Notes under the pieces: model-generated
Database searches by the model: none
What the model was told of the DNA's origin: nothing
What the model saw: the letters and a program-made list of their open reading frames with translations, nothing else
Translations under genes and position numbers: made by a program
Assembly: GCA_039801725.1 (NCBI GenBank)
Contig: JBDRVE010000005.1
Location: forward strand, 3,370 to 67,369
DNA length: 64,000 bases
Direction of reading: 5' to 3'
Source of the DNA: a candidate division WOR-3 bacterium
GTDB lineage: Bacteria > Hydrothermota > Tepidihabitantia > Tepidihabitantales > DTDR01
Shown here: one piece after another, positions 3,254-54,434 of the stretch
Layout of the letters: the number at the start of each line of letters is the position of its first letter
Numbering within the stretch: the first letter of the stretch is position 1

Positions 3254-4705
3254 ATGAGAAGAGAAATTATTTTAATAATTGGTTTTTGTGTTTTGTCTTT
3301 TGCGTTAGGTTTTATCGTTTCTCCCCTGAAAGGAAAAGAAAAAACCTCTCTGTATGTCCAAAATGTTTCTCAACCAGTTTTAGAAGGAAAACCAAACTTA
3401 CCAACAAATAACATTTCTTTTGTTGAAGTTGCGGAAAAGATTATTCCGACAGTAGTAAATATTTCTGCTGAAAAATCAATAAAAATTAGAACACCGGGTT
3501 TTGAATTTTTCTCACCCTTTGAAGATTTTTTTAGAGAATTTTTTAAAGATTTCCCTTTACCAAAAGAATTTAGTGAGAAAATAAGAACCTTAGGAAGTGG
3601 TGTGATAATTTCGGAAGACGGTTATGTAATTACTAATAATCATGTAATTGAAGGATATGATAAAGTAATTATTACTCTTTCTGACGGAACAAAATTTAAA
3701 GAAAAAGAAGTAAAAATTATTGGTCGCGATTCAAAAACTGATATTGCTCTGTTGAAGATTGAAACAAAAAAGAAACTTCCCTATGCCCCCTTAGGTAATT
3801 CTGATGAAGTGAGAATTGGTGAATGGGTGATGGCAGTGGGTAATCCTTTTGGTTTATCGGGTACGGTTACCGTTGGAGTTATATCGGCTAAACATCGAAC
3901 CGGTATTGATCTTTATGGCGGACCAACTTACCAAGATTTCATCCAAACCGATGCCGCAATAAATCCAGGAAATTCCGGTGGTCCCTTAGTAAATTTGAAA
4001 GGTGAAGTTATTGGTATCAATACGGCAATTAAAACCACTTCTGGTGGGAATATTGGAATCGGTTTTGCTATTCCAATTAACTTAGTGAAAAAAGTGAAAG
4101 ATGATTTGTTAAAAAGAGGGAAAGTTGTCCGTGGTTATTTGGGGATTTATCTTCAAGAATTAACGGACGAGTTAAAAGAATCGATGGATTTACCCAAAGA
4201 TTTGGAAGGAGTGGTTATAAGAGATATTATCCCTAATTCGCCTGCAAGTAGAGCCGATTTAAAATCGGGAGATGTGATTTTAAAATTTCAAGGCAATAAA
4301 GTAAAAAGTGTTGATGAATTGAGATTTATGGTTGCTGAAACTCCCCCTAATACTAAGGTAGAGCTAGAAATTTATCGCGATGGTCGAGTTCGGAAAGTGA
4401 CTGTGGTTTTAGGAGAAATGCCTGAGGAAGTTTCCCAAGTTAAAAAGGAAGAAGTTTTAAGCATCGGGTTGCGAGTAAAAGAAACAAAAGAAGGTGTTGA
4501 AGTAGAAGAAGTGGAAGCAAATTCGCCAGCGGAAGAAGCTGGTATCCAGGTTGGTGATATTATTTTAGAAATTCAGAAAGAAAAAGTTAAAAATTTGGAT
4601 GATTACTATCGTCTTTTGGAAAGATTTAAAGAACGGAAGTCAATTCTTTTTAAAATAAAAAGAGGAAATGAAATTTATCTCATTCCTCTTCGTCTCAAAG
4701 AATAA
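3254..4705 (+). CDS. htrA: HtrA/DegP-family periplasmic serine protease with two PDZ domains
   Basis: Catalytic triad contexts NNHVIEG, DIALLKI and GNSGGPLVN; two PDZ-like C-terminal segments; N-terminal signal/anchor. Confidence 0.9.
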   Translation: MRREIILIIGFCVLSFALGFIVSPLKGKEKTSLYVQNVSQPVLEGKPNLPTNNISFVEVAEKIIPTVVNISAEKSIKIRTPGFEFFSPFEDFFREFFKDFPLPKEFSEKIRTLGSGVIISEDGYVITNNHVIEGYDKVIITLSDGTKFKEKEVKIIGRDSKTDIALLKIETKKKLPYAPLGNSDEVRIGEWVMAVGNPFGLSGTVTVGVISAKHRTGIDLYGGPTYQDFIQTDAAINPGNSGGPLVNLKGEVIGINTAIKTTSGGNIGIGFAIPINLVKKVKDDLLKRGKVVRGYLGIYLQELTDELKESMDLPKDLEGVVIRDIIPNSPASRADLKSGDVILKFQGNKVKSVDELRFMVAETPPNTKVELEIYRDGRVRKVTVVLGEMPEEVSQVKKEEVLSIGLRVKETKEGVEVEEVEANSPAEEAGIQVGDIILEIQKEKVKNLDDYYRLLERFKERKSILFKIKRGNEIYLIPLRLKE

Positions 4706-5499
4706 TGGTCAAGGATCTTCCTTCTTATTATTTTTTCTTATCCCAACAGTATCCCGATCTTTCTCGCGAAGAAGAACGAGAACTGATTGAAAAGGCAAAA
4801 AAGAATAATTATCAAGCTTTTTCTAAACTTATTTTATCCCATCTTAAATTAGTAGTAAAAATTGCTCAAAAATATCGTTCAAAAAATTTATCTTTGGATG
4901 ATCTAATTGGAGAAGGGATAACCGGTTTGATGGAAGCGATTCATAAGTTTGACGAAAAGAAGAATGCGCGTTTAGCCACTTATGCTGCCAAAAGAATTAA
5001 ATACCGAATAAGAGAAGCGATATTTAACGAGGCTATTTTCCATTTTTCTCCTAAGATTCAGAAATTAGCGAAAAAGATAAAAAAAGAACCTCCCGAAATG
5101 CTTTTTCAACCTGAACAATTGGCAAAAAAGTTTAAGGTACCATTAAGTGAGGTTAAGCAAGCAATAAATTTTTTAAATTTAGCCCGCTTTAATTTAGAAG
5201 GAGAAGAAACTTCTGAAGAGAATCCTATTCTAGTTAACGAAACTCGAGAAACTCAATTTGAAAAGGTAAATATAAAAAAAATTGTTAATGAGTGTTTATC
5301 ACAACTCACCGAGAGAGAACGTTTGGTTATTAAAAAGGTTTTTGGTTTGCCCCCTTATAAAGAACCCGAGAGTTTAACAAAGATTGGTAAGGATTTAGGA
5401 CTTTCAAGGGAAAGGGTCCGACAGATTCGTAATGAGGCGCTTAAGAAATTGCGTCGATTTTTAAATAAAAGGCTTAATCTTATTTCTTTCTTTTTGTGA
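4705..5499 (+). CDS. RNA polymerase sigma factor, sigma-70 family (regions 2 and 4; probably an alternative sigma)
   Basis: Region 2 DLIGEGITGLMEAIHKFDEKKNARLATYAAKRIKYRI and region 4.2 HTH LTKIGKDLGLSRERVRQIRNEALKKL; the start overlaps the htrA stop (TAATG). Confidence 0.8.
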   Translation: MVKDLPSYYFFLSQQYPDLSREEERELIEKAKKNNYQAFSKLILSHLKLVVKIAQKYRSKNLSLDDLIGEGITGLMEAIHKFDEKKNARLATYAAKRIKYRIREAIFNEAIFHFSPKIQKLAKKIKKEPPEMLFQPEQLAKKFKVPLSEVKQAINFLNLARFNLEGEETSEENPILVNETRETQFEKVNIKKIVNECLSQLTERERLVIKKVFGLPPYKEPESLTKIGKDLGLSRERVRQIRNEALKKLRRFLNKRLNLISFFL

Positions 5500-6479
5500 T
5501 TTTTTTTCTACTATTTTTCTTCAATTCTCAATTAATACCCCTTTCTCCCCAGTTAAATATTTTAGGAGTTGATTTTGTAAATTTGGTATCCGATTCAGAG
5601 ACAGATATTTATTTAAACCCTGCCAATCTTTTTTTCTGGAATAAAAAATTTTTCTTTTCTTTTTTTTCTTACCACGACTATCTTTCTTTGGATACCGGAT
5701 TACCTGTTTCTTTCCAGAGTCTTTTAAGTATCAAAGGGAATAAAAAAGATTTTATTTTTAATATTTCTTATCACTATCTTTTGAGTTATAGGAAAACCAA
5801 AGAGAAAACGGTCTTTTTAGATTATCTTAATCTGCCCATTAGTTTTAATTATAATTTGGAGGAAATAAAAATTGGTTTAGGAGTTAGTTACCAAGAATTT
5901 TATTTAGAAAAGAGTACTATCCATCAAAATTTTATCGAAAAAAAAAGATATTTGCCCATTAAATTAGGTTTTTCAAAAGGAGAAGAAGAAAGGTTTGAAT
6001 GGGTTACTCAATTTATTTCCTTTGAAAACAGTTTTTGTAATTACCAAATAAATTTGATTGCCAAAAAAGTAATTGGTGAGATTGACAAGCATATTTTTCT
6101 TTTGGACGTAGATTATCGAAAAGAAAATAACTTAAAAAGTTGGGAATTTTTAGGCGGTTATTGTTTATCTTCTTATTACAATTTTTATGGTTTTATTCTT
6201 AATAATTTTTTTGCTATGAAACCTTTATTATTTTTAAAAAAAGAAGTAACTATAAAAATAATTTTTCCTTATGGATTAATAGGTTCTTTTGGTAAAATAA
6301 AATTTCTCTTTGGTTTAAAAAATGGTTTAATTTGGGAGAAAGAAAATATTTGTTTTACTAATTATGAATATAATTTTGGTTTAAATTATCGATTTTCAAA
6401 TAATTTCGAATTTTATTTTTTAAATCTTTTGGTAAATTCCTCGCGAAGGTGGTTTTTCGGATTTAAATTTTCTTTTTAA
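5496..6479 (+). CDS. hypothetical protein, possible outer-membrane beta-barrel
   Basis: Rich in F/Y/N/G alternating segments and a C-terminal ...GFKFSF ending in Phe; overlaps the sigma-factor stop. Confidence 0.4.
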   Translation: MIFFLLFFFNSQLIPLSPQLNILGVDFVNLVSDSETDIYLNPANLFFWNKKFFFSFFSYHDYLSLDTGLPVSFQSLLSIKGNKKDFIFNISYHYLLSYRKTKEKTVFLDYLNLPISFNYNLEEIKIGLGVSYQEFYLEKSTIHQNFIEKKRYLPIKLGFSKGEEERFEWVTQFISFENSFCNYQINLIAKKVIGEIDKHIFLLDVDYRKENNLKSWEFLGGYCLSSYYNFYGFILNNFFAMKPLLFLKKEVTIKIIFPYGLIGSFGKIKFLFGLKNGLIWEKENICFTNYEYNFGLNYRFSNNFEFYFLNLLVNSSRRWFFGFKFSF

Positions 6480-6810: not shown

Positions 6811-9829
<3,019 letters not shown>

Positions 9830-9858: not shown

Positions 9859-9977
<119 letters not shown>

Positions 9978-10907: not shown

Positions 10908-13103
10908 ATGTTTTTGTTTTTTTATCTTTTTAACTATTTAGCCAATATTGAAAGAAGTAAGGCAATTTTTTATAATCCCAGTGGTTTAGGAATAAATTCG
11001 GGTTACGAAATCTATTTTTCAAAAAAGTTAGATAAGGATACTATTTTAGATATAGGGTTTTCTTTAAATAATTTTGGTTTTGGTTTTGAAAAGAAGGGTG
11101 ATTTAAATAATTATTATTTTGGGTTTGGTCTATCTATAGGTAAAAATATATTTTGGGGCTATCGGTATCAATATATCGAAAAATTAAAGGAATCGAATCA
11201 TTTAGCAGGGTTTATTTTCCGTCCAACAAATTTTTTATCTTTTTCTTTTAGTTATAATTCAGAAAAAGATTTTAATTTTGGCATCGGTTTAAGACCGATT
11301 AATGAAAGGATAAATTTTTATTTTGACTATTATAAAAATCCCTATTATCTCTTGGGAACCGAGATAGAAATACTTGATGGGTTTTTGATAAAAGGAGAAC
11401 TGGATAAAGATAAAAATATCAACTTGGGAATAAGTTTCTCTTTTCCTAAATTTAAAATCTCTTCAAAATACGGTAGAAAATCAAAAGAGATCGAATTGTT
11501 TTTGTCAAAAGAAAGATATCTGACGATTTTTAAAAGACCTAAAAAATTTATAGAGATAACTTTTTCTGGTAATTATGATGAGGATTATTATGAGCAATCT
11601 TTATTTTTTAAAAAACGAATACCAAGATTTTATCTTTTAATAAAAAACTTAGAAGAGATTTTGAAGAAAGAAGATGTTTATGGAATTTTTATTCGTCTGA
11701 AAGATTATTATTTATCTCCTGCTCAATATGAAGAATTAAGGGAAATCCTTTTAGAAATTAAAAATAAGGGTAAGAAGGTTATTTTTTATGCCGATTATTA
11801 TAAAAGTTTGTTAGAGTACCAAATTGTTTCCCTTGGTGATTGTTTGATTTTAAATAAAGGCGGTGAAGTGGTTATTCCTGGTATTCTATTAAAGAAATAT
11901 TATATAAAGAAATTGTTAGAAAAAATAGGTGGAGAGATGGAAGTTTTAGCGATTGGTAAATATAAATCAGCAAAAGAATTATTCACAAGAGAAAACATGT
12001 CAGAAGAAGATAAAGAACAACTTAATGAAATTCTTGATATGATTTATTCAAAAGTAAAAGAAAATATTAAGGAAACAAGAATAAGAGAAAGAGATTTGGA
12101 TAGTTTGATAAATTATTATGGTTATTTTAATGAGAAGTTGGCAAAGGAGTTTGGATTAATCGATACGGTTTTATATCCGAAAGATGTTGATGAATTTTTA
12201 AAGAAATATACCAAAGTTAAAAAGATAAAAATAGAAAAATATTTGGGTGAGAAAGAAATAGGAAGAAGTTGGTTAAAGAGAAAAAAGAAAATTGCTTTGG
12301 TAATTGCGGAAGGAACGATTGTTGATGGAAAAAGTGGTTATGACCCAAGACCATTAATTGGTGGAAAATATATTGGCTCAGAAACAATGGAGGAGATATT
12401 TAAGAAATTAGAAAAGGATAAGTCAATTAAAGCGGTTATTTTCCGAATAAATTCTGGTGGTGGTTCAGCAAGTGCTTCAGAAATAATTGCTAATGCCGTT
12501 AAAAAATGTAATGAGAAAAAGCCGGTAATTGTTTCAATGGGAAATGTTGCTGCTTCCGGTGGCTATTATATCGCTTGTTTGGCAAGAAGAATCCTTGCTG
12601 ATAATTCAACTATTACTGGTTCAATTGGTATTTTCAGCATTAAATTTGTTGCTAAAAAATTATATGAAGATAAATTAGGGATTACTTTTGATTATTTAAA
12701 GAGAGGAGAAATGGCTGATGCCCAAACAGAATTGCGTGGTTATACTGAAAGGGAAAGAGAAATTTTTATGAAACAATTGGAATGGTGGTATGATAAATTT
12801 ATCACGCGCGTAAGTGAAGGAAGAAAATTAAATAAAGAATATATTGATTCTATCGGTCAAGGTAGGGTTTGGAGTGGATATAAAGCAAAAGAATTGGGAT
12901 TGGTTGATGAGATTGGTCCGTTGAGAAAAGCAATTGAGATAGCCAAAGAAGAAGCCAAAATTAAAAAAGGAGAAGAGATAGAAATATTTTTATATCCGAA
13001 GGAAGAGAGAAGATTTCTCTTTTCTTTTCCAAAGGTTAATATTTTTGCTTTATTAAAGGAAAGAATTCTTTATTTGCTGCCGGAAAATATTGTAATTGAA
13101 TAG
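10908..13103 (+). CDS. sppA: signal peptide peptidase SppA (protease IV, 67K-type, tandem S49 domains) with an N-terminal extension of about 200 aa
   Basis: S49 motifs SGGGSASASE, MGNVAASGGYYIA and GSIGIF; the first approximately 200 aa are F/G/Y/N-rich and not SppA-like. Confidence 0.75.
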   Translation: MFLFFYLFNYLANIERSKAIFYNPSGLGINSGYEIYFSKKLDKDTILDIGFSLNNFGFGFEKKGDLNNYYFGFGLSIGKNIFWGYRYQYIEKLKESNHLAGFIFRPTNFLSFSFSYNSEKDFNFGIGLRPINERINFYFDYYKNPYYLLGTEIEILDGFLIKGELDKDKNINLGISFSFPKFKISSKYGRKSKEIELFLSKERYLTIFKRPKKFIEITFSGNYDEDYYEQSLFFKKRIPRFYLLIKNLEEILKKEDVYGIFIRLKDYYLSPAQYEELREILLEIKNKGKKVIFYADYYKSLLEYQIVSLGDCLILNKGGEVVIPGILLKKYYIKKLLEKIGGEMEVLAIGKYKSAKELFTRENMSEEDKEQLNEILDMIYSKVKENIKETRIRERDLDSLINYYGYFNEKLAKEFGLIDTVLYPKDVDEFLKKYTKVKKIKIEKYLGEKEIGRSWLKRKKKIALVIAEGTIVDGKSGYDPRPLIGGKYIGSETMEEIFKKLEKDKSIKAVIFRINSGGGSASASEIIANAVKKCNEKKPVIVSMGNVAASGGYYIACLARRILADNSTITGSIGIFSIKFVAKKLYEDKLGITFDYLKRGEMADAQTELRGYTEREREIFMKQLEWWYDKFITRVSEGRKLNKEYIDSIGQGRVWSGYKAKELGLVDEIGPLRKAIEIAKEEAKIKKGEEIEIFLYPKEERRFLFSFPKVNIFALLKERILYLLPENIVIE

Positions 13104-15255: not shown

Positions 15256-15643
15256 CGTTTTTATCTAATTGGTAACTTGCTAATGGTTATTTAATTGATT
15301 AAGGTATCATTACCAAATATAAGATAGTAGCTCAAAGTAATTATTAGAAAATCATTAAAAATTTTATTCCATTAGTTTACATCCAATAGACTGGTACCTG
15401 ATTATTACTCAAAATAAGTTAATAAGAATAGGAAGAACTTTCAGATAGAATACATAAATAAAAAATGAAAATAGAGAATTTTTTTAGTTCTTAATGGTTA
15501 TCATAGTTTATAATCTTTTTCGAGATTAAAGTCTATACTATCTCCTATACAGTTCCCTTCCCAATAGAAGGTAAAATCCCCTTGTCTTATTAATTTAGGT
15601 TTTAGAAAAATATGGGAAAGGGCTAATTTATTTAGTCAATTAA

Positions 15644-15847
15644 TTAAAGGAAATATACTTCGCTAAGCACCTCCTTTCTAAGTCTTTTTCTTAATAATCT
15701 TCTATTAAACAAATATTCTAACCCTCTCAGTCTTTCTAAAAGGTAATATCTATAGGTTAAGTTAGAATAATTGCCAAAAAAAGATGGAAAGTATTTCCTA
15801 ACCTTTTTTCTAAGTTGTTTATAAGATTGATAGATATCTTTTACCAT
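15644..15847 (-). CDS. small basic protein of unknown function (67 aa, YRYY motif); copy A of a two-member family in this window
   Basis: RBS AAAAGGAAA 5 nt upstream; identical in length to copy B, with the YRYY motif at the same position encoded by different synonymous codons; a conserved promoter-like TTATATATA lies upstream. Confidence 0.6.
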   Translation of the reverse strand: MVKDIYQSYKQLRKKVRKYFPSFFGNYSNLTYRYYLLERLRGLEYLFNRRLLRKRLRKEVLSEVYFL

Positions 15848-15958
15848 AATTATTTCCTTTTATATATTCTCTATATATAAGACGAAAAAATAGCCCAAAA
15901 GGTTACCACTTTTTTTATTATGCCGGCAGACTATATTTTATACTGAAATTCTTTCTAT

Positions 15959-15986
15959 TTGACTTTTAGAAAAAATGAATTATAAT
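15959..15986 (+). promoter_or_regulatory. promoter TTGACT-N16-TATAAT for the downstream secreted-protein gene
   Basis: Consensus boxes; the track's 15975 ATG falls inside the spacer, so the real start is 16020, which has an AAAGGAGG RBS. Confidence 0.6.
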
Positions 15987-39701: not shown

Positions 39702-39718
39702 GTCAATTACAAATTGAC
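39702..39718. promoter_or_regulatory. perfect palindrome GTCAATT-aca-AATTGAC overlapping the -35 (TTGACT) of the downstream promoter; possible operator
   Basis: 7-bp arms with a 3-nt spacer; promoter TTGACT-N16-TAAAAT-N7-ATG(39749) follows. Confidence 0.45.
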
Positions 39719-39748
39719 TTTATCAATAATTTTATTAAAATTTTAAAT

Positions 39749-45292: not shown

Positions 45293-46299
45293 TTTATCTC
45301 TTTCAATAATTTTTCAATTATATAATCAGCCGTAATACCATCGGCTTCAGCCGCAAAGTTTAAGACAATTCGGTGTCTTAATACTAAGGGTGCCATTTCT
45401 TTAATATCGTCAATAGTCGGTGTTGGTCGGCCATCTAAAATTGCTTTTCCTTTTGCTCCCAACACAAGATATTGAGATGCCCGAACCGAAGCCCCCCAAC
45501 TTACATAATCTTTAATAATTTTATAACTATTTTCTTGGGGTCTTGTTGCCCTTACTAATCCAACCGCATAATCTAAAATTTCTTCCGCAACCGGAACTTT
45601 TCTTAAAAGAGATTGTAGTTCTAATATTTCTTTAGCCGAAAGTATCGGTTTAATCTGGGGATTATAAGCCGAAGTGGTTGTTTTTACAATCTCTTTTTCT
45701 TCTTCTTTTGATGGATAAGTGATATTTATAGAAAACATAAATCTATCTAATTGGGCTTCGGGTAAAGGATAAGTTCCTTCCATTTCGATTGGATTTTGAG
45801 TAGCTAAAACTAAAAAAGGTTGGGGCAAGGGATAAGTCTCGTTACCAACAGTTACTTTATATTCTTGCATTGCTTGTAATAAAGCAGCTTGGGTTTTTGG
45901 CGGTGTTCGGTTTATTTCGTCAGCAAGAATAATATTAGCAAATATTGGACCTTTGACAAAGCGAAATTCCCTTTTACCTGTTGCCTTATCTTCCTCAATT
46001 ATCTCTGTTCCCGTTATATCAGAAGGCATCAAATCGGGTGTAAATTGAATTCTCTTAAAAGAAAGATTTAACACCTGCGCTAATGTATTTACAATTAGAG
46101 TTTTGGCTAATCCCGGAACACCAATAATTAAAGCATGACCGTTAGCAATCAGAGTAATTAAAATTTTTTCTATTACCTCTTCTTGACCAACAATAACTTT
46201 TTTTAACTCATTCTCTATCGCCCTTTTTGCCTCTCTTAATTTTAAAATTATCTCTTCGCTTTCCATAATAAATTTTAAATAAATTGATAATAAAGTCAA
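45289..46299 (-). CDS. MoxR-family AAA+ ATPase
   Basis: Walker A GVPGLAKT, Walker B/sensor ILADEINRTPPKTQAALLQAMQE, about 330 aa. Confidence 0.9.
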   Translation of the reverse strand: MTLLSIYLKFIMESEEIILKLREAKRAIENELKKVIVGQEEVIEKILITLIANGHALIIGVPGLAKTLIVNTLAQVLNLSFKRIQFTPDLMPSDITGTEIIEEDKATGKREFRFVKGPIFANIILADEINRTPPKTQAALLQAMQEYKVTVGNETYPLPQPFLVLATQNPIEMEGTYPLPEAQLDRFMFSINITYPSKEEEKEIVKTTTSAYNPQIKPILSAKEILELQSLLRKVPVAEEILDYAVGLVRATRPQENSYKIIKDYVSWGASVRASQYLVLGAKGKAILDGRPTPTIDDIKEMAPLVLRHRIVLNFAAEADGITADYIIEKLLKEIK

Positions 46300-46317
46300 T
46301 TTTAATTAGAATAAAAT

Positions 46318-46917
46318 TTGGTTGAATTAATTTTAAAAGTAATAATTATTAGTATTTCTGGTGCTTTAGCACCCGGACCTTTAACTGTCGCTACTGCCTC
46401 CTGGGGAGTAAAAAGAGGTTGGAAAGCCGGTTTAGAAATAAGTCTGGGGCATACTTTTGTTGAATTTCCGATAGTTTTATTGATTGGTTTGGGTTTAATG
46501 AATTTTCTGAAATCAGAAAAGTTTTATTTCTATTTAGGAATTTTGGGAAGTCTCTTTCTTTTTCTCTTTGGAATTTTAACTATTAAAGATGCACTTATTT
46601 ATAAACCACCTTTAATTGTTAAAGAAAAATCCTCTCTCCCATTATTAACCGGTATCGCTTTATCCTTTTTCAATCCTTATTTTCTTATTTGGTGGTTAGG
46701 AATCGGAACACCGTTAATTTACGAGGCAATAAAAAAGAGCGGTTTTATTGGTCTTTCTGTTTTATATATCTTTCATGTTTCTTTAGATTATTTTTGGCTT
46801 ATCTTTATTGCTACTTTATCTTCTTTTGCCAAAAAGAAAATTTATCGTTATCTTCTTTTTATTTTAGGGATTATAATAATTTACTTTGGTATTAAAATGC
46901 TTTTTATTTTATTCTGA
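46318..46917 (+). CDS. LysE/RhtB-family exporter (putative)
   Basis: Six-TM protein of about 200 aa with the LysE-type N-terminal helix pattern. Confidence 0.5.
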   Translation: MVELILKVIIISISGALAPGPLTVATASWGVKRGWKAGLEISLGHTFVEFPIVLLIGLGLMNFLKSEKFYFYLGILGSLFLFLFGILTIKDALIYKPPLIVKEKSSLPLLTGIALSFFNPYFLIWWLGIGTPLIYEAIKKSGFIGLSVLYIFHVSLDYFWLIFIATLSSFAKKKIYRYLLFILGIIIIYFGIKMLFILF

Positions 46918-47081
46918 AATATCAAAACCAAAAACTTTATGATTTTTCAATATTGATCTTTAATTATTATACTTTTAAATATTGGATACTATACTATCTC
47001 TTATACAGTACCCTTCTCAAAAGAAAATAAAGCCCTCCTGTTTTATTAATGTAGGTTTTAGAAAGTATATAAAAGGAATAT

Positions 47082-47285
47082 TTATTTAGTTATTAAATAA
47101 AGAAAATCAAAAACTTTAAGCACCTCCAGTTTAGGTTTATTTTTCAACAACTCCTTCTTAACTAAAATTCCAAAATCTAATTCTCTTTTTATCCTATAAT
47201 ACCGGTATTTTAATTCCCAATAATCTAAGCCCATTATCTTTAAGTTATTCATACCATATTTGGATTTATTACCATAAATAATCAT
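47082..47285 (-). CDS. small basic protein of unknown function (67 aa, YRYY motif); copy B
   Basis: Taking the internal ATG (MIIYGNK...) gives exactly 67 aa as in copy A, with RBS AAAAAGGAAGAG; the track's longer 77-aa form (to 47315) is the alternative start. Confidence 0.55.
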   Translation of the reverse strand: MIIYGNKSKYGMNNLKIMGLDYWELKYRYYRIKRELDFGILVKKELLKNKPKLEVLKVFDFLYLITK

Positions 47286-47396
47286 AATCTCTTCCTTTTT
47301 ATCTATTCTCCCCATATATATAATACGGAAGAGTACCCTAAAAGGTTACCACTTTTTTTTATTTATCTAACATCTCTTAATGTCTATTCTTTCTTA

Positions 47397-47424
47397 TTGA
47401 CATTTAGAATAACTTTGTTATACT
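47397..47424 (+). promoter_or_regulatory. promoter TTGACA-N16-TATACT for the lipoprotein-serpin genes
   Basis: Near-identical to the copy A promoter context (TTCTTTCTTATTGACATTTAGAA); leader with AAGGAGG RBS. Confidence 0.55.
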
Positions 47425-47452
47425 CAAAAGTTATGACTAAAAAGGAGGAAGT

Positions 47453-47791
47453 ATGAAGAAGACATTACTTTTTTCTTTAATTGGTTTATTTTTAGTTTCT
47501 ACCTTTTTCGGTTGCGGTGCGATGATCACGATGGGCGGTGGTGGTGTGCTTTATCAAGATACCAAAATGCCACTCCCTTATGCTAGTTATTATGCCCAAG
47601 GAACCGATTCTTACTCAAAAGTAGGCGAGGCTTCTTGTACTTCCATTTTAGGAATAATTGTTACCGGTGATGCGAGCATTAAAGCAGCAATGGAGAACGG
47701 AGGAATAAGAAAGATCCACCATATTGACTATCAAGTTACCAACATCTTAGGGATTATTGCCACATATAAAACAATCGTTTACGGCGAATAG
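47453..47791 (+). CDS. small lipoprotein (TRL-like family, tentative)
   Basis: Signal peptide with FGC lipobox, glycine-rich stretch, about 112 aa. Confidence 0.5.
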   Translation: MKKTLLFSLIGLFLVSTFFGCGAMITMGGGGVLYQDTKMPLPYASYYAQGTDSYSKVGEASCTSILGIIVTGDASIKAAMENGGIRKIHHIDYQVTNILGIIATYKTIVYGE

Positions 47792-47829
47792 TTAAATAAA
47801 AAGGAAGGGGGCGGTTTATTCCGCCCCCA

Positions 47830-48972
47830 ATGTCTATAATGAGCATAATAATTTTGTCTTTTCTTTTTAATTTTTTTGATGCTAATAACCAATTTGGTTT
47901 AAAGGTTTTTCAATCGCTAATAAAAGAGAAACAAGTAAATACTTTTATTTCTCCTGTGAGTATTTTTGAAGCCTTATTGATGACCTATAATGGTGCTGAT
48001 GGTAAGACAGCCGAAGCCTTTAAGAAATCTCTATTCTTAGAAGATTTAAAATTAGATAGTATTAATAAAATTAATCAGAAATTATTAAGAAATCTAAAAA
48101 AAGAAAAAGGTATTGAATTAAAAATTGCTAATGGTTTATTTGGTAGAAAAGGGATTAGATTTAAAAAGGATTTTTTAAAGATAAATAAAGATTATTATTA
48201 TGCAGAAATAAGAAGTTTAGATTTTAATAATCCAAAAGCCATAAAAATAATTAATAATTGGGTTAAGGAAAATACTAAAGGAAAAGTAGAGAAAATAATT
48301 GATAAAATAGATGCAATGGCGGTTTTATATTTAATAAATGCGATTTATTTTAAAGGGTTATGGGAAGAGAAATTTGATAAGAAAAATAATTTTGAAGGTG
48401 ATTTTAATTTAGTTGATGGAAGAAAAAAGAAAGTTTTATTTATGAGAAGAGATGGCGATTTTCTATATTATGAAAATGGAAAATTACAAGCAATTTATCT
48501 TCCTTATATTTCAAAAAAATTTGGTTTTTATATCTTTTTACCGAAAGAAGGATATTCTATTACTCAATTTATTAATGATTTAAATTATAATGATGTAAAA
48601 AACTATTTAAATTCTCTTTCTAAAAAAGAAGGCGAGATAATTTTACCGAAATTTAAAATTGAGTATGAGAAAAGTTTAAACGAGGTTTTAAAGGAACTTA
48701 ATTTAAGTATTGCTTTCAATCCTTATGAGGCAGATTTCTCTAAAATGGCTAATGTAAAACCTTATAATCTATTTATTTCCGAAGTGAAACATAAAAGTTA
48801 TTTAGATGTATCAGAAGAGGGGACCGAGGCAGCAGCAGTAACTTCCGTAGAGGTTGCCTTAACGGCAGTAAGAGAAAGATTTAAGATGTTATGTGATAGA
48901 CCTTTCTTATTTTTAATTACTGAAAAAGAAAGTAATTTAATACTTTTTATTGGTGTTCTTTTTGAGCCCTAA
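47830..48972 (+). CDS. serpin (serine protease inhibitor)
   Basis: NAIYFKGLWEEKFDKKNNFEGDF breach/shutter region, reactive-centre loop hinge EEGTEAAAVTS, C-terminal FLFLITEKESNLILFIGVLFEP serpin signature. Confidence 0.9.
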   Translation: MSIMSIIILSFLFNFFDANNQFGLKVFQSLIKEKQVNTFISPVSIFEALLMTYNGADGKTAEAFKKSLFLEDLKLDSINKINQKLLRNLKKEKGIELKIANGLFGRKGIRFKKDFLKINKDYYYAEIRSLDFNNPKAIKIINNWVKENTKGKVEKIIDKIDAMAVLYLINAIYFKGLWEEKFDKKNNFEGDFNLVDGRKKKVLFMRRDGDFLYYENGKLQAIYLPYISKKFGFYIFLPKEGYSITQFINDLNYNDVKNYLNSLSKKEGEIILPKFKIEYEKSLNEVLKELNLSIAFNPYEADFSKMANVKPYNLFISEVKHKSYLDVSEEGTEAAAVTSVEVALTAVRERFKMLCDRPFLFLITEKESNLILFIGVLFEP

Positions 48973-51809: not shown

Positions 51810-52807
51810 ACTCCCTCCTCATAAACTTCTTCTTTTTTTCTTGTTAAATAATATTCTAAATCATATTTGATAATCACATATAATAAGACAAGCAAAATAA
51901 TCAAAAATAATGCTGTATAAAAAAGGGGATATCTTTTTTCGTAAAATAATCTACCTCTAAATAATTCTTCTTTAATTTCGTATTCTTCCTTTAAAATAAG
52001 AGGATTAGCAAAATGATAGAAAAAGGTTTTTTTATTTATTTCTTTAAAAGATAAATCATAAGAGATAGCAATAATTCCTTTGTAATGGCGGTTTTTTAAT
52101 AAATCTCTTTTTAAGGAAATTTGTAGAGATTCATTTTCAGCAATAATTGGTTTTATATTATAATAATTAATCTTTTCTTTAATAAATTCTCTTGCTTCTT
52201 GAGATAATCCTTCGCCTAAATCGTTTTTTCCACCAAGCGAGGCATATTCACAAGTAAAGTCAAGGATTTTATTATCTTTAAGTATTTTTAAAATCTCTAA
52301 AAAGGTGAAATTTGGGTCATTAGCACCATAAGAGATTGAAGCCACTTGCAAGAAGACTATTGGTTTAATTTTTAAAATTTCTAATGCAGATAATAGGGAG
52401 ATATTTAAAGCTGGGAAACTGCCATCTAAAAAAAGAATAACTGTATCATTTTCTTTCAATTTCTTATCTTTTAATACTTCAACAAATAGAGCAGCAAAAT
52501 TTGGCGAAAGGGATGCTTGGGATAATGCTAAATTTGTTCTTTCATAAGTTAAAAGCGAATAAGGATGGAAAATCAAACCACTCTCTTTTGGGTCATTGAT
52601 AATATCGATAGGAATCCCATAGTTTAACCTTGATTTTTTTACTATTTCCATTGCCTCTTTTGCTTTTTTTACCGCTTTAATCTTCTCTTCGTAATATTTG
52701 CTTTTTTCTTCTTTAACTGTGAAACTGAGGATAAGAAAGAGAATAACAGCCAACAGAGCGTAAATAATTATAATACTTTTTCCTACCTTACCAACTCTTT
52801 TTCTCAT
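51806..52807 (-). CDS. membrane-anchored protein, possibly a poly-gamma-glutamate system accessory protein
   Basis: N-terminal TM anchor; position immediately downstream of pgsB-pgsC with overlapping stops; no strong motif. Confidence 0.35.
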   Translation of the reverse strand: MRKRVGKVGKSIIIIYALLAVILFLILSFTVKEEKSKYYEEKIKAVKKAKEAMEIVKKSRLNYGIPIDIINDPKESGLIFHPYSLLTYERTNLALSQASLSPNFAALFVEVLKDKKLKENDTVILFLDGSFPALNISLLSALEILKIKPIVFLQVASISYGANDPNFTFLEILKILKDNKILDFTCEYASLGGKNDLGEGLSQEAREFIKEKINYYNIKPIIAENESLQISLKRDLLKNRHYKGIIAISYDLSFKEINKKTFFYHFANPLILKEEYEIKEELFRGRLFYEKRYPLFYTALFLIILLVLLYVIIKYDLEYYLTRKKEEVYEEGV

Positions 52808-53262
52808 TTAAAAATAAAAACTTTTCCACTGTTAATTAAAATCAAAATAAGACGGGTAATCACACTACCTACCAAAGCAGTAGAAAAGGTTTCGATAATT
52901 CCTTGTCTTTGCGACCAATAGGCTAAGAGGCCAGGAATAACATAGCCAATAACTTCCCAATTTAACATTTGTTTTTGATAAGTTATTGGTGGAAATAGTT
53001 TAAATAGATAGCCAAAAAGATAACCTAAAATTACTGAAATTAAAAGCAATCTTCTTCCATAAAGGATTACATATTTAGAAAGGATAAGATTAATTAAATA
53101 TACTAATAAGGCAATAAAAAAGGTTAAAATAATTTTAAAGGGATGATGAAGATTTAAAGCCAAATAGCCAGGTACGACAATTCCGCCAGCCGCTAAACCA
53201 ATTGTTTCGGTCATAAAAAAACTTAGAAGCATTCCTAAACCAATACCTTCAATTATTACCAT
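52804..53262 (-). CDS. pgsC: poly-gamma-glutamate biosynthesis protein PgsC/CapC
   Basis: 152-aa four-TM protein beginning MVIIEGIGLGMLLSFFMTETIGLAAGGIVVPGYLAL, as in CapC. Confidence 0.7.
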   Translation of the reverse strand: MVIIEGIGLGMLLSFFMTETIGLAAGGIVVPGYLALNLHHPFKIILTFFIALLVYLINLILSKYVILYGRRLLLISVILGYLFGYLFKLFPPITYQKQMLNWEVIGYVIPGLLAYWSQRQGIIETFSTALVGSVITRLILILINSGKVFIFK

Positions 53263-54434
53263 AAATTATAATCAATTTCTTTACCGTATTTTTGAAATTC
53301 TTTAACCAATCCTTCGCCGTAACCAACAATATTACCGGTAGCAAAAATTAACCATTTTTTGTTTTTACCTTTACTTTTTATAATCTCTGAGATTTGAGTA
53401 AAAACTTCTTTGGGTGCTTTTTTTTCTAAATCTAATATATTTTCTTTTTTTAGTTTTCTAATAAATGGTTTAGTTAAAAAACCAGTTGCCACATAATAAT
53501 CAGCAATAAATTTACTATTAATTAAATCACCCAATTGTTCTGACCTTTCAATCCGATCTGCTCGACAGTTCATTAAAACAATTTTGTAATCGTAATTTAT
53601 ACTATTAAATTTATTCCAAAGATAAAAAATTGAATCTGGATCATTTGCCGCCATAGTGTTAACAAAATAAGCATAATTATCATCAATCTTTATCTCAAAC
53701 ACCCTTAAAACCCCTGGGTCGGGATTAATCCTTTTCATTCCCAAAAGGGCTTTATTTTTCTCACAACCTAAATATTCACATACTGCTAATGCTAAGGCGA
53801 CATTTTCTTTATGTTCTAAATAAGAAAAACCTTTCATCATCTCATCATTTATACTATCTTTTTTTACATAAACTATTTTACAATTCCTTTCTTTCGCTTT
53901 CTCTTCAAATATCTTTAAATAATTTTCATCCTCAAAGATAAATAATACTCCATTTCTTGGGATTGTTCTTGCTAAATTTATTGCCACATCTTTTAAAGTA
54001 GGTCCCATAACATCCAAATGGTCATTTCTTACATTAGTAATAACCGTAATCTGGGGTTGAACAAGTTTCTCATTATAAATTGTTTGATATTCCGGAACTA
54101 ATGCCATACATTCGGTAATGCTAAATTCTGGTTGTTCCTGAGATAACCTTTTAAAAATCTTTTTCTCTTCAATAATATTTGCTCTTCCTAATCTAATAAT
54201 AGGAAATTCTTTATTATTAATTATCAATCTTGGTTTCGTACCAGTGGTTTTACAGGCAACTTTTTTATTATTTTCTAAAAGACCACCAGCAATTAATCGG
54301 CAAGTTGAAGATTTTCCTCTTGTACCATTAACTAAAATTCTTATTTTTATTTTTTCTAAGTTTCTTTGGTGAGTCTGATATTCCCAAAAAAGATAGAAAA
54401 GGAAAATAACCAGTAGAAAAAATAAAAAAATCAT
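53256..54434 (-). CDS. pgsB: poly-gamma-glutamate synthase PgsB/CapB (Mur-ligase family)
   Basis: N-terminal anchor then ILVNGTRGKSSTCRLIAGGL P-loop of the Mur-ligase fold; about 392 aa. Confidence 0.75.
   Translation of the reverse strand: MIFLFFLLVIFLFYLFWEYQTHQRNLEKIKIRILVNGTRGKSSTCRLIAGGLLENNKKVACKTTGTKPRLIINNKEFPIIRLGRANIIEEKKIFKRLSQEQPEFSITECMALVPEYQTIYNEKLVQPQITVITNVRNDHLDVMGPTLKDVAINLARTIPRNGVLFIFEDENYLKIFEEKAKERNCKIVYVKKDSINDEMMKGFSYLEHKENVALALAVCEYLGCEKNKALLGMKRINPDPGVLRVFEIKIDDNYAYFVNTMAANDPDSIFYLWNKFNSINYDYKIVLMNCRADRIERSEQLGDLINSKFIADYYVATGFLTKPFIRKLKKENILDLEKKAPKEVFTQISEIIKSKGKNKKWLIFATGNIVGYGEGLVKEFQKYGKEIDYNLW

Follow-up and report, generated by a model that had tools for sequence, protein, structure and literature searches.

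We analyzed a 64,000-nt stretch of DNA (hereafter the window; contig JBDRVE010000005.1) from a candidate division WOR-3 bacterium, with a focus on a short repeated element at 46989–47360 that stands in front of a gene pair encoding a TRL-like lipoprotein and a serpin. An initial annotation had described this region as a module with a small open reading frame (ORF) and a promoter, and had viewed it as a shared, mobile-looking regulatory cassette driving the serpin. Our results point instead, with considerable confidence, to the remnant of a decayed capsid-like gene cassette, carrying a promoter that resembles the extracytoplasmic function (ECF) class and lying beside a TRL-serpin operon with its own native promoter. 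The element would be what remains, after decay and internal deletion, of one copy of a small cassette that is specific to this lineage and scattered through the genomes of one WOR-3 clade, and its unit would be read on the minus strand, away from the TRL-serpin genes. The serpin-under-mobile-cassette idea does not hold and the serpin claim is ordinary; the import lies in the remnant’s ancestry, namely sequence and fold homologs of the adnavirus capsid in bacterial chromosomes.

Capsid-like genes in the intact cassettes

Intact relatives of the element span ~850 nt. Each has an ECF-like promoter and a short leader ahead of two overlapping genes, with a conserved 3′ block (block A) behind them. 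The two-gene type (loci L029, L013, L046, L053, and L065–L067) has gene 1 of ~120–128 aa, an overlapping gene 2 of ~105–112 aa, and block A. An operon with a helix-turn-helix (HTH) gene (L057 and L068–L071) consists of an HTH_17/excisionase-like gene (Pfam 1.8e-8, phrog_66 1e-6), a 108-aa gene, and two genes of 125 and 126 aa; all contigs with this operon are ≤3.7 kb, and it could be part of a larger repeated element. Early searches of the cassette proteins against Pfam, NCBIfam, and PHROGs returned nothing but HTH_17, and the PADLOC defence and toxin-antitoxin profiles gave no significant match, only a generic HTH hit (mad1, 4e-4) for the HTH_17 protein.

Gene 1 was orphan-like in a word-indexed search, with 8 clusters that were all from WOR-3. 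The seven best PDB matches of an AlphaFold2 model built from 8 sequences (pLDDT 75) were all Adnaviria major capsid proteins (SIRV2, SSRV1, AFV1, and SFV1), and Foldseek of the gene 1 model against a viral library again returned Adnaviria capsid proteins. Because the E-values of these first structure matches were weak, independent profile checks were made. An exhaustive profile search for the gene 1 family yielded 345 cluster representatives, and a 110-sequence profile (A7) matched, among PDB sequences, SSRV1 (6wq0, 2e-7), SIRV2 (3j9x, 3.5e-7), and SFV1 (6d5f, 2.3e-6), as well as AFV1 ORF140 and ORF132 at 0.006 and 0.011, respectively. Twenty of the 110 members matched PF12193 (“Sulfolobus virus coat protein C terminal”) with a best value of 4.6e-12, and other family members matched PF25647 and PF21660. 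The model from the deep alignment (pLDDT 97.1) is predicted to adopt a long N-terminal helix and a C-terminal helical bundle, as in the SIRV2-fold capsid protein. Foldseek matched it to SIRV2 at TM 0.68 and SSRV1 at TM 0.70, with all unrelated matches at a probability of ≤0.23, and the SIRV C-domain superposes at a root mean square deviation of 1.7 Å over 76 columns. These profile and fold matches show that gene 1 is homologous to the SIRV2-fold major capsid protein of Adnaviria; the shallow profile had found no PDB sequence relatives for gene 1, a result overturned by the deep profile. The capsid-like family also includes both L057 proteins (E = 1.4e-15 and 1.6e-11).

Gene 2 aligned with gene 1 at a probability of 94% (E = 1.4e-7 over 95 columns) and reached 27–29 bits in local search, and on these alignments gene 2 is a divergent paralog of gene 1. 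An 8-sequence profile had suggested that the two genes were unrelated (probability 1.5%), which was overturned by the 110-sequence profile. Elsewhere in the capsid-like family (P0153, P0156, P0138, P0151, and P0152), we observed a tandem-duplicated 258-aa member and members with large C-terminal fusions (230–455 aa), a hint that, in uncultured organisms or viruses, the family may have broader structural functions.

The full cassettes stand alone between housekeeping genes, with PolA, NTP-transferase, and PurH in one case and PriA, TamB, and aspartokinase in the other, and genes of the type IX secretion system also flank cassettes. No integrase, transposase, or other virus genes were found near the full cassettes at the loci examined. 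This isolation of a two-gene locus amid housekeeping genes speaks against a virus genome. At the same PolA...PurH position, a 1.56-Mb WOR-3 contig carries a 62%-identical ortholog pair, and the ratio of nonsynonymous to synonymous substitution rates (dN/dS) was 0.06–0.16 for gene 1 and 0.06–0.10 for gene 2 at dS up to about 2. This pattern reads as the signature of long-maintained, functional chromosomal genes under purifying selection. We regard as an evenly balanced proposition that the tandem SIRV2-fold capsid homologs of WOR-3 are old, vertically inherited, and selectively maintained loci with an alternative-sigma (stress-type) promoter and scattered broken copies, representing either domesticated virus genes or the cellular stock of the adnavirus capsid, and thus a first link between Adnaviria and Bacteria. 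If domesticated, their products are possibly DNA-coating or DNA-protecting proteins of a thermophile.

Several features were seen around the full cassettes. At L046 (Ga0209394_1012873), cas1 and cas2 lie about 220–1500 nt upstream of the cassette promoter, divergent from the full capsid-like cassette, and the orthologous site of L029 has a small RHH-like gene instead. At L068 (2715–2960), GTATGACYTTGAGCACYTTA is present three times in the DNA that separates the capsid-like genes from the next ORF, and a GAAGGGCC...GGCCCTTC hairpin there resembles a 30-nt insertion in the L013 and L046 leaders.

Window copies as internal-deletion derivatives

Comparison of 46901–47460 with the window (blastn) identified one other locus only, with matches at 15533–15721 (75% over 192 nt, E = 3e-27) and 15845–15916 (80.5%, E = 1e-13). 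A repeat-family search (D1, D9) and a pairwise alignment (A1) agreed with blastn on two copies, and three conserved motifs had 2 occurrences each in the window, where shuffles predict 0.00–0.20. The second copy that the initial annotation had proposed is therefore real, and part of its outline holds: of 46984–47430, the repeated element covers 46989–47360, and 47361–47430 lies outside it. The two copies align in three blocks, i.e., block A (46989–47140), block B (about 47286–47360), and block C, a promoter-like stretch around TTGAC; the DNA between blocks A and B, which is the middle of the ORF, could not be aligned. A small conserved ORF does exist on the minus strand, while the plus-strand 35-aa ORF (46982–47089) is not conserved and was rejected as the module gene because of an in-frame stop in copy 1.

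For each window copy, blastn similarity to the L029 cassette is confined to the two ends of that cassette (70–156 and 747–922). The ORF of copy 1 can be aligned to gene 2 across an internal gap of 41 residues (hhalign E = 1.1e-8; hmmsearch 4.5e-6), and the copy 2 ORF aligns to the gene 2 profile over the C-terminal 31 aa only (hhalign E = 5e-4). The copies at L044 and L033 are even more reduced, their ORFs having 3 and 28 codons, respectively. The A7 profile found nothing in the window at E ≤ 0.01 and hence no intact family member there, and the small ORFs of the window had no family in Pfam, NCBIfam, PHROGs, or PADLOC. Judged by these alignments, the window ORFs are gene 2 fragments and not capsid-family members, and the window copies are shown to be internal-deletion derivatives of the two-gene cassette. 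Gene 1 would have been lost, with the promoter, leader, and start codon joined to gene 2 fragments and the 3′ block.

On the minus strand, copy 2 begins with the ECF-sigma-like promoter core (47325–47360), which is invariant in 29/29 copies and reads leftwards, away from the TRL-serpin genes. It is followed by a conserved leader (47286–47324) that comprises, in the 29-copy alignments, a (TA)n run, a purine run GGGGAGAA, and a Shine-Dalgarno (SD) sequence AAGGAAGAG, then by a 67-aa ORF from the conserved SD-ATG (47082–47285), a decayed gene 2 fragment, and by block A, the conserved 3′ block of the cassette (46989–47140; nhmmer block A profile E = 6e-39). The start codon of this ORF (ATG, 47285–47283) is conserved as ATTATG. 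A 77-aa version from an upstream ATG at 47315 (47082–47315) is the gene-caller annotation in public assemblies. Copy 1 (15533–15916, minus strand) has block A at 15533–15687 and a 67-aa ORF at 15644–15847, preceded by its leader. Leader length differs among copies, being short in L015, L033, and L045 and extended by the 30-nt insertion in L013 and L046. Between sister species, the ORF middle is 82–88% identical vs 94–100% for blocks A and B, and the sister-species ORFs show a frameshift in L026 (the copy 1 ortholog), start-codon shifts in L017/L018, and indels. On this comparison, the window ORF is decaying and its noncoding ends are better kept.

Two scans placed these copies in a wider family. 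The first searched a single genome of each species for a block B 19-mer, without imposing the CGT box or its spacing, and the second covered metagenome contigs with a pattern that left the A/T-run, the T-tract, and the flanks free. A sister metagenome-assembled genome (MAG; JBDRVN01, candidate division WOR-3) with 86–90% nucleotide identity to the window and synteny at both window copies had 11 loci with the block B 19-mer. Outside JBDRVN01, the first scan found two true relatives (L013 and L033). The second found 17 loci, 16 of them true copies, from the same few hot-spring samples; L043 was rejected as a chance match. Pooled and de-duplicated, the scans gave 29 distinct copies of the conserved core, which, with 2 copies in the window and 11 loci in one sister MAG, establishes the module as a genuine dispersed repeat. 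L013 (JAWAJM010000123.1) lies on a 2.8-kb contig binned as Candidatus Aenigmatarchaeota, its cassette is almost identical to those of the WOR-3 loci L046 and L053, and the contig is probably mis-binned. Among viral contigs, the block B 19-mer had 0 matches, and four matches of a block A 18-mer were attributed to chance because similarity never extends past the 18-mer; a phage origin of the module was rejected on these results.

A probable ECF-like promoter and a conserved 3′ block

In minus-strand order, every copy has an A-run (6–8), GTGGTAACCTTT, 13 semi-variable bases, CGT, (TA)n, a purine run with the SD sequence, and ATG. The conserved core (A-run, GTGGTAAC-N17-CGT, leader, SD sequence, and ATG) faces away from the serpin, and the 67-aa ORF and a 150-nt 3′ block come after its ATG. 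GTGGTAACCTTT was found in 29/29 copies, the A-run and TTT not having been imposed by the second search, and the AAC-to-CGT distance is exactly 17 nt in all copies from the first search (CGT not imposed) and also in L065, L066, and L072. Conservation starts abruptly at the A-run, and positions upstream carry background-level information. In copy 2, the boxes are the A-run (47353–47360), GTGGT (47348–47352), AAC (47345–47347), the spacer (47328–47344), and CGT (47325–47327), all on the minus strand; in copy 1, the computed coordinates, also on the minus strand, are 15910–15916 for the A-run, 15902–15904 for AAC, and 15882–15884 for CGT. ECF-class promoters have AAC in the −35 element with an adjacent T-tract (tGAAACnTTTt), CGT in the −10 element, and spacers of 14–17 bp (PMC5758882), and the module motif fits this consensus of AAC, T-tract, and CGT. 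Upstream of the orthologous cassette on a distant WOR-3 chromosome (L072), the layout of CGT, TA-rich stretch, SD sequence, and ATG is kept. Block B is most likely the promoter of the minus-strand ORF and of the ECF class. We infer that GTAAC-N17-CGT works as an ECF-type promoter, that transcription of the remnant continues, and that block A is kept for a reason.

The window also holds a candidate reader of this promoter family. An HtrA-like serine protease gene (Trypsin_2 and two PDZ domains) is followed by an overlapping sigma-70-family gene (together 3254–5499); the sigma-70-family protein (4705–5499) has regions 2 and 4, and its start overlaps the stop of the protease gene. The product of this protease-sigma operon is a candidate only.

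Three other interpretations of block B were rejected. A sigma-54 reading of TGG-N9-TTGC fits type-2 copies only, with the spacing off by one in type-1; a plus-strand terminator (hairpin and T-run) finds no conserved hairpin, with only GGTTACCAC and ACG conserved; and an invertible promoter lacks flanking inverted repeats. As for promoter arrangement, L050 has two promoter cores 309 nt apart; L050, L048, L055, and L057 have tandem promoter copies, each with a 59-aa ORF (MKRYLIKKKALAYDD...); and GATTAGATGAGATTAGAT repeats are found immediately upstream of the A-run in four loci.

Several observations weigh against a decayed cassette with an ECF-type promoter. Block A stays conserved while the ORF decays. 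The AAC box is AAG at the distant ortholog L072, which makes the −35 assignment less secure, and the 17-nt AAC-to-CGT spacing is at the long end of ECF spacers. The promoter would be assigned by motif and architecture alone, an RpoE query finds no ECF sigma homolog in the window, and the window’s only alternative sigma factor (4705–5499) is, at 264 aa, large for an ECF factor. The copies are paralogous, so that their shared sequence may partly reflect descent, and possibly gene conversion, rather than selection, and the high identity of copy 2 to L059 is uninformative, as it resembles a recombination tract (see below). Finally, the block B “spacer” can pair with the SD region, as expected of a leader RNA.

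The conservation of block A may be explained by co-option of the remnant, in which a short RNA made from the alternative-sigma promoter would act through block A (as a 3′-derived regulatory RNA or a protein or RNA sponge) and the ORF would be dispensable; we consider this unlikely, though it is the most credible of the alternatives. The first ~50 nt of block A (minus strand) are the C-terminus of gene 2 (..LLKNKPKLEVLKVF.., ..KNKLEKEVLKELYFLLLK), and the remaining ~100 nt are noncoding, with four GGAGG-like motifs, which suit a sponge, and a sharp end at GTATAAGAGATAGTATAG / GTATAGGAGATAGTATAG; an nhmmer profile recovered 12 distinct full-length copies. Among paralogs, blocks A and B are 75–90% alike while the ORF region is unalignable or deleted (down to 3 codons in L044 and 28 in L033), and the sister species repeat this contrast (blocks 94–100% vs middle 82–88%). 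RNAalifold on block A gave a weak structure on the ORF strand only, with 0 pairs on the opposite (plus) strand, and it includes a small hairpin (CUUUCU..AGAAGG) with compensatory changes in L058 and copy 1. However, the consensus structure amounts to −4.96 kcal/mol with double changes in 3/20 pairs, no terminator follows block A, and the first third of the block is no more than the conserved gene 2 C-terminus. Of the noncoding part, the terminal motif alone can be recognised in the distant L072 cassette, and gene conversion among copies could mimic constraint. Covariance models of Rfam 15 gave chance-level matches only for both copies (E > 1, far below gathering scores). Block A may be a signal for the 3′ end or for processing, or it may be an RNA that was co-opted once the genes had been lost; we regard both as possibilities.

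Block B might alternatively act as a structured 5′ leader RNA (an SD-sequestering hairpin, a thermometer, or a protein-binding leader) behind a sigma-70 promoter upstream of the A-run, a reading that we rate as improbable. Inverted repeats do pair the pyrimidine-rich spacer with the SD region (47289–47306 with 47316–47333, and 15849–15867 with 15873–15891), the minimum free energy folds of many copies pair CCUUUU with AAAAGG, and −10-like hexamers (AATAAT, CATAAT) often precede the A-run. Yet such pairing is trivial between runs of pyrimidines, purines, and (TA)n where the GC content is 32%, the short-leader copies L015, L033, and L045 have no AAAAGG partner, and the 30-nt insertion of L013 and L046 falls inside the putative helix. 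Upstream of the A-run there is no consistent −35 element, only background-level positions, and no Rfam family matched. An ECF-type promoter remains our preferred reading of block B.

Mobility of the copies

The copies might also be non-autonomous mobile elements, similar to miniature inverted-repeat transposable elements (MITEs), moved in trans by a transposase or provirus. They are multi-copy with sharp boundaries at both ends, they include internal-deletion derivatives of a longer unit, and many of them lie at contig ends. HTH_17/excisionase-like genes occur elsewhere behind the same promoter (with the Pfam and phrog_66 matches given above), and one cassette adjoins a tRNA-Ser-like sequence (L066, about 5800–5890, immediately upstream of the full cassette); tRNA-adjacent sites are often used by integrating elements. 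Against mobility of this kind, there are no terminal inverted repeats (the block A end and the block B end are unpaired in both copies), no target-site duplication is visible at either window copy in flanks checked by reading only, and no transposase or integrase lies near any full cassette. Sister species share most copies as orthologs, one cassette keeps its synteny across deep divergence within WOR-3, and viral contigs had no match. Taken together, we find such mobility rather hard to credit.

A native promoter for the TRL-serpin operon

The lipoprotein-serpin pair was confirmed by full-length domain matches above curated cut-offs. The TRL-like lipoprotein (47453–47791, plus strand; PF13146, E = 3.6e-25, 88 bits vs a cut-off of 25) has a signal peptide with the lipobox ..FFGC, and the serpin (47830–48972, plus strand; PF00079, E = 1.7e-107, 360 bits vs 27) has the inhibitory-type hinge EEGTEAAAVT. 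The true start of the serpin is likely 47839, giving 377 aa as in its orthologs, and the gene was aligned with that of L059 over 1134 nt. The module does stand in front of this pair, and the TTGACA-N16-TATACT promoter named in the initial annotation exists at 47397–47424, with a TG extension and 11/12 positions in the promoter scan; its counterpart at copy 1 is TTGACT-16-TATAAT (15959–15986). This sigma-70-type promoter (TTGACA 47397–47402, TATACT 47419–47424), with the 5′ untranslated region (UTR), occupies 47386–47452 on the plus strand, outside the repeat.

Its origin is revealed by relatives. WOR-3 serpin orthologs are 90, 83, 82, 75, 72, 70, and 70% identical to that of the window. In L061, L062, and L063 (serpins 72–70%), the TRL-serpin pair lies directly beside a divergent MoxR gene, and the spacer of 72–109 nt contains no LysE, small ORF, block A, or block B; in L061 and L063, no block A or block B traces were found at E ≤ 1. 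The module-free loci L061 and L063 carry the TTCTTATTGACAT...TATAAT promoter and a near-identical 5′ UTR (AAAAGTTATGcCTAAAAAGGAGGAAGTATG), and in both, GTCAATTT is followed directly by TTCTTCTTATTGACAT, i.e., the MoxR and TRL promoters stand back to back; the rearranged locus L060 (serpin 83%) also keeps the TRL promoter. The module, therefore, does not supply this promoter, which these sequence comparisons show to be the native, ancestral promoter of the TRL-serpin genes. The segment absent from module-free relatives, LysE (46318–46917) plus the remnant (about 46303–47385, limits approximate and taken from the comparison), would have been inserted later between the two back-to-back ancestral promoters. 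The sigma-70 promoter at 47397–47424 that would drive TRL, and perhaps the serpin, would then be older than the arrival of LysE and the remnant, and the remnant would affect serpin expression, if at all, in an indirect way. The module-free state was found only in distant relatives, where LysE is also absent. Relatives thus carry the serpin without the module, and the module does occur elsewhere, so that the finding proposed as a refutation by the initial annotation was obtained in its first half only.

The idea that a mobile regulatory cassette with an outward sigma-70 promoter drives downstream cargo, here TRL and serpin, is the least tenable of the alternatives and very improbable: although both window copies are followed by a strong plus-strand TTGACa-16-TATAaT and a secreted-protein gene, and the TTGAC box abuts the T-run in several other copies with a good promoter in L029 (TTGACT-16-TATAAT) and L023, the TRL promoter and UTR are also present where the module has never been, at the orthologous loci L061 and L063. 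In copies 1 and 2, the element and the TTGAC box are about 40 unrelated nt apart, the box has no −10 partner in L019, L022, and L031, and the idea is already contradicted at the serpin locus. The outward promoter is not part of the element, whose conservation ends at the A/T-run with background information content beyond, and the core transcription unit of the supposed cassette lies on the opposite strand, pointing away. TTATTGACAT also precedes the window genes at 10908, 23282, and 25052; it is, by this recurrence, a generic strong-promoter form of the genome, which accounts for the likeness of the two block C promoters.

The same promoter had been claimed to drive both genes; co-transcription of the serpin is uncertain with an intervening GC-rich hairpin (47807–47828), identified by a scan and a five-locus comparison in which its stem shows compensatory changes. 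In L061 and L063 this hairpin has a T-run and forms a canonical terminator, whereas the window has lost the T-run, so that serpin co-transcription with TRL is plausible. A serpin is nothing unusual in a bacterium: 7,940 matches at E ≤ 1e-20 were found among 8,000 scored candidates. Overall, the TRL-serpin operon is ordinary, conserved, and self-sufficient.

Recombination has probably touched the locus. In L059, L060, and L030, TRL is replaced by an unrelated 112–116-aa lipoprotein with the same signal peptide kept, and the breakpoint of this swap is at about 47514. The interval 46918–47515 is 95–100% identical to L059, vs 41–78% at four-fold degenerate sites of the neighboring genes, and resembles a recent recombination tract by which the mature lipoprotein was exchanged. 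This identity was rejected as evidence of selection on the module because the whole interval, including non-module spacer, is 95–100% identical.

Genomic context of the window

The window has a GC content of 31.6% and is bacterial, with a full bacterial 23S rRNA, a 5S rRNA, and an LptD gene, and a near-identical version of the serpin/module locus was found in WOR-3 MAGs and hot-spring metagenomes. The 23S rRNA (6814–9828) and 5S rRNA (9860–9976) genes have a protein ORF (5496–6479) and no 16S gene upstream, and the rRNA genes appear unlinked. A 33-nt inverted repeat (85%; 39711–39743 vs 46270–46302) joins two promoter regions (AAATTGACTTTATCAATAAT...); its arm at 46270–46302 is the MoxR promoter, which in relatives lacking the module stands back to back with that of TRL. 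CapC-like and Mur-ligase (CapB-like) genes (52804–54434) follow the serpin at a distance of a few genes, are syntenic in L060 and L063, and suggest poly-gamma-glutamate synthesis.

Comparison with known systems

Among bacterial serpins (chloropin, PMC10090351; phylogeny, PMC8233489), the window serpin is likewise a full-length PF00079 protein with an inhibitory-type hinge, and nothing sets it apart except that its conserved pairing with a small TRL lipoprotein in WOR-3 is a local feature. Similar to promoter-bearing repeats such as the Correia elements of Neisseria, insertion sequences (IS) with outward promoters, and MITEs, the module is short, multi-copy, intergenic, and promoter-adjacent, and could in principle alter the expression of neighbors. 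Unlike them, it has no inverted termini or target duplication, its copies are stable between species, and the outward promoter in front of the serpin belongs to the locus itself.

The promoter core resembles the ECF promoters of Bacillus subtilis (sigW, sigX, sigM, and sigV; tGAAACnTTTt ... CGTA/CGTC, PMC5758882) in having AAC, one base, a T-tract, and CGT at a fixed distance, and in occurring in many copies per genome before small genes. In contrast to ECF regulons, the surrounding 75 nt, including the leader and start codon, are conserved too, since the copies are related as paralogs rather than forming a regulon that evolved independently; relative to the consensus, AAC is AAG in one distant ortholog and AAC-to-CGT is 17 nt. 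These about 30 near-identical promoters provide a compact natural set for defining an alternative-sigma regulon in an uncultured phylum.

The realm Adnaviria, which the SIRV2 capsid fold defines, comprises filamentous viruses of archaea and has been described as confined to archaeal hosts. The Adnaviria capsid protein has been regarded as unique to its realm, and the realm as without connection to viruses of bacteria or eukaryotes (PMC10848233). Our literature search found nothing treating Adnaviria together with WOR-3, and a bacterial link to Adnaviria capsid genes appears unreported. Compared with MCP1/MCP2, the paired major capsid proteins of Adnaviria (Rudiviridae, SIRV2 and SSRV1; Lipothrixviridae, AFV1 and SFV1; and Tristromaviridae), cassette gene 1 shares profile and fold, a size of ~120–130 aa, and a long N-terminal helix followed by a helical bundle. 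Adnaviria families with heterodimeric capsids encode paired capsid paralogs side by side, and the cassette likewise has two divergent paralogs side by side. Unlike Adnaviria, the cassettes lie in bacterial chromosomes with no other virus genes, are syntenic across WOR-3, and show purifying selection, and the window holds only fragments of the second paralog. The Adnaviria capsid coats linear double-stranded DNA in A-form and builds a filamentous virion. If our interpretation is true, these loci would be the first link between Adnaviria and Bacteria, whether as domesticated genes or as cellular stock, and two questions become testable, namely the origin of the adnavirus capsid and the bacterial use of such proteins to coat or protect DNA.

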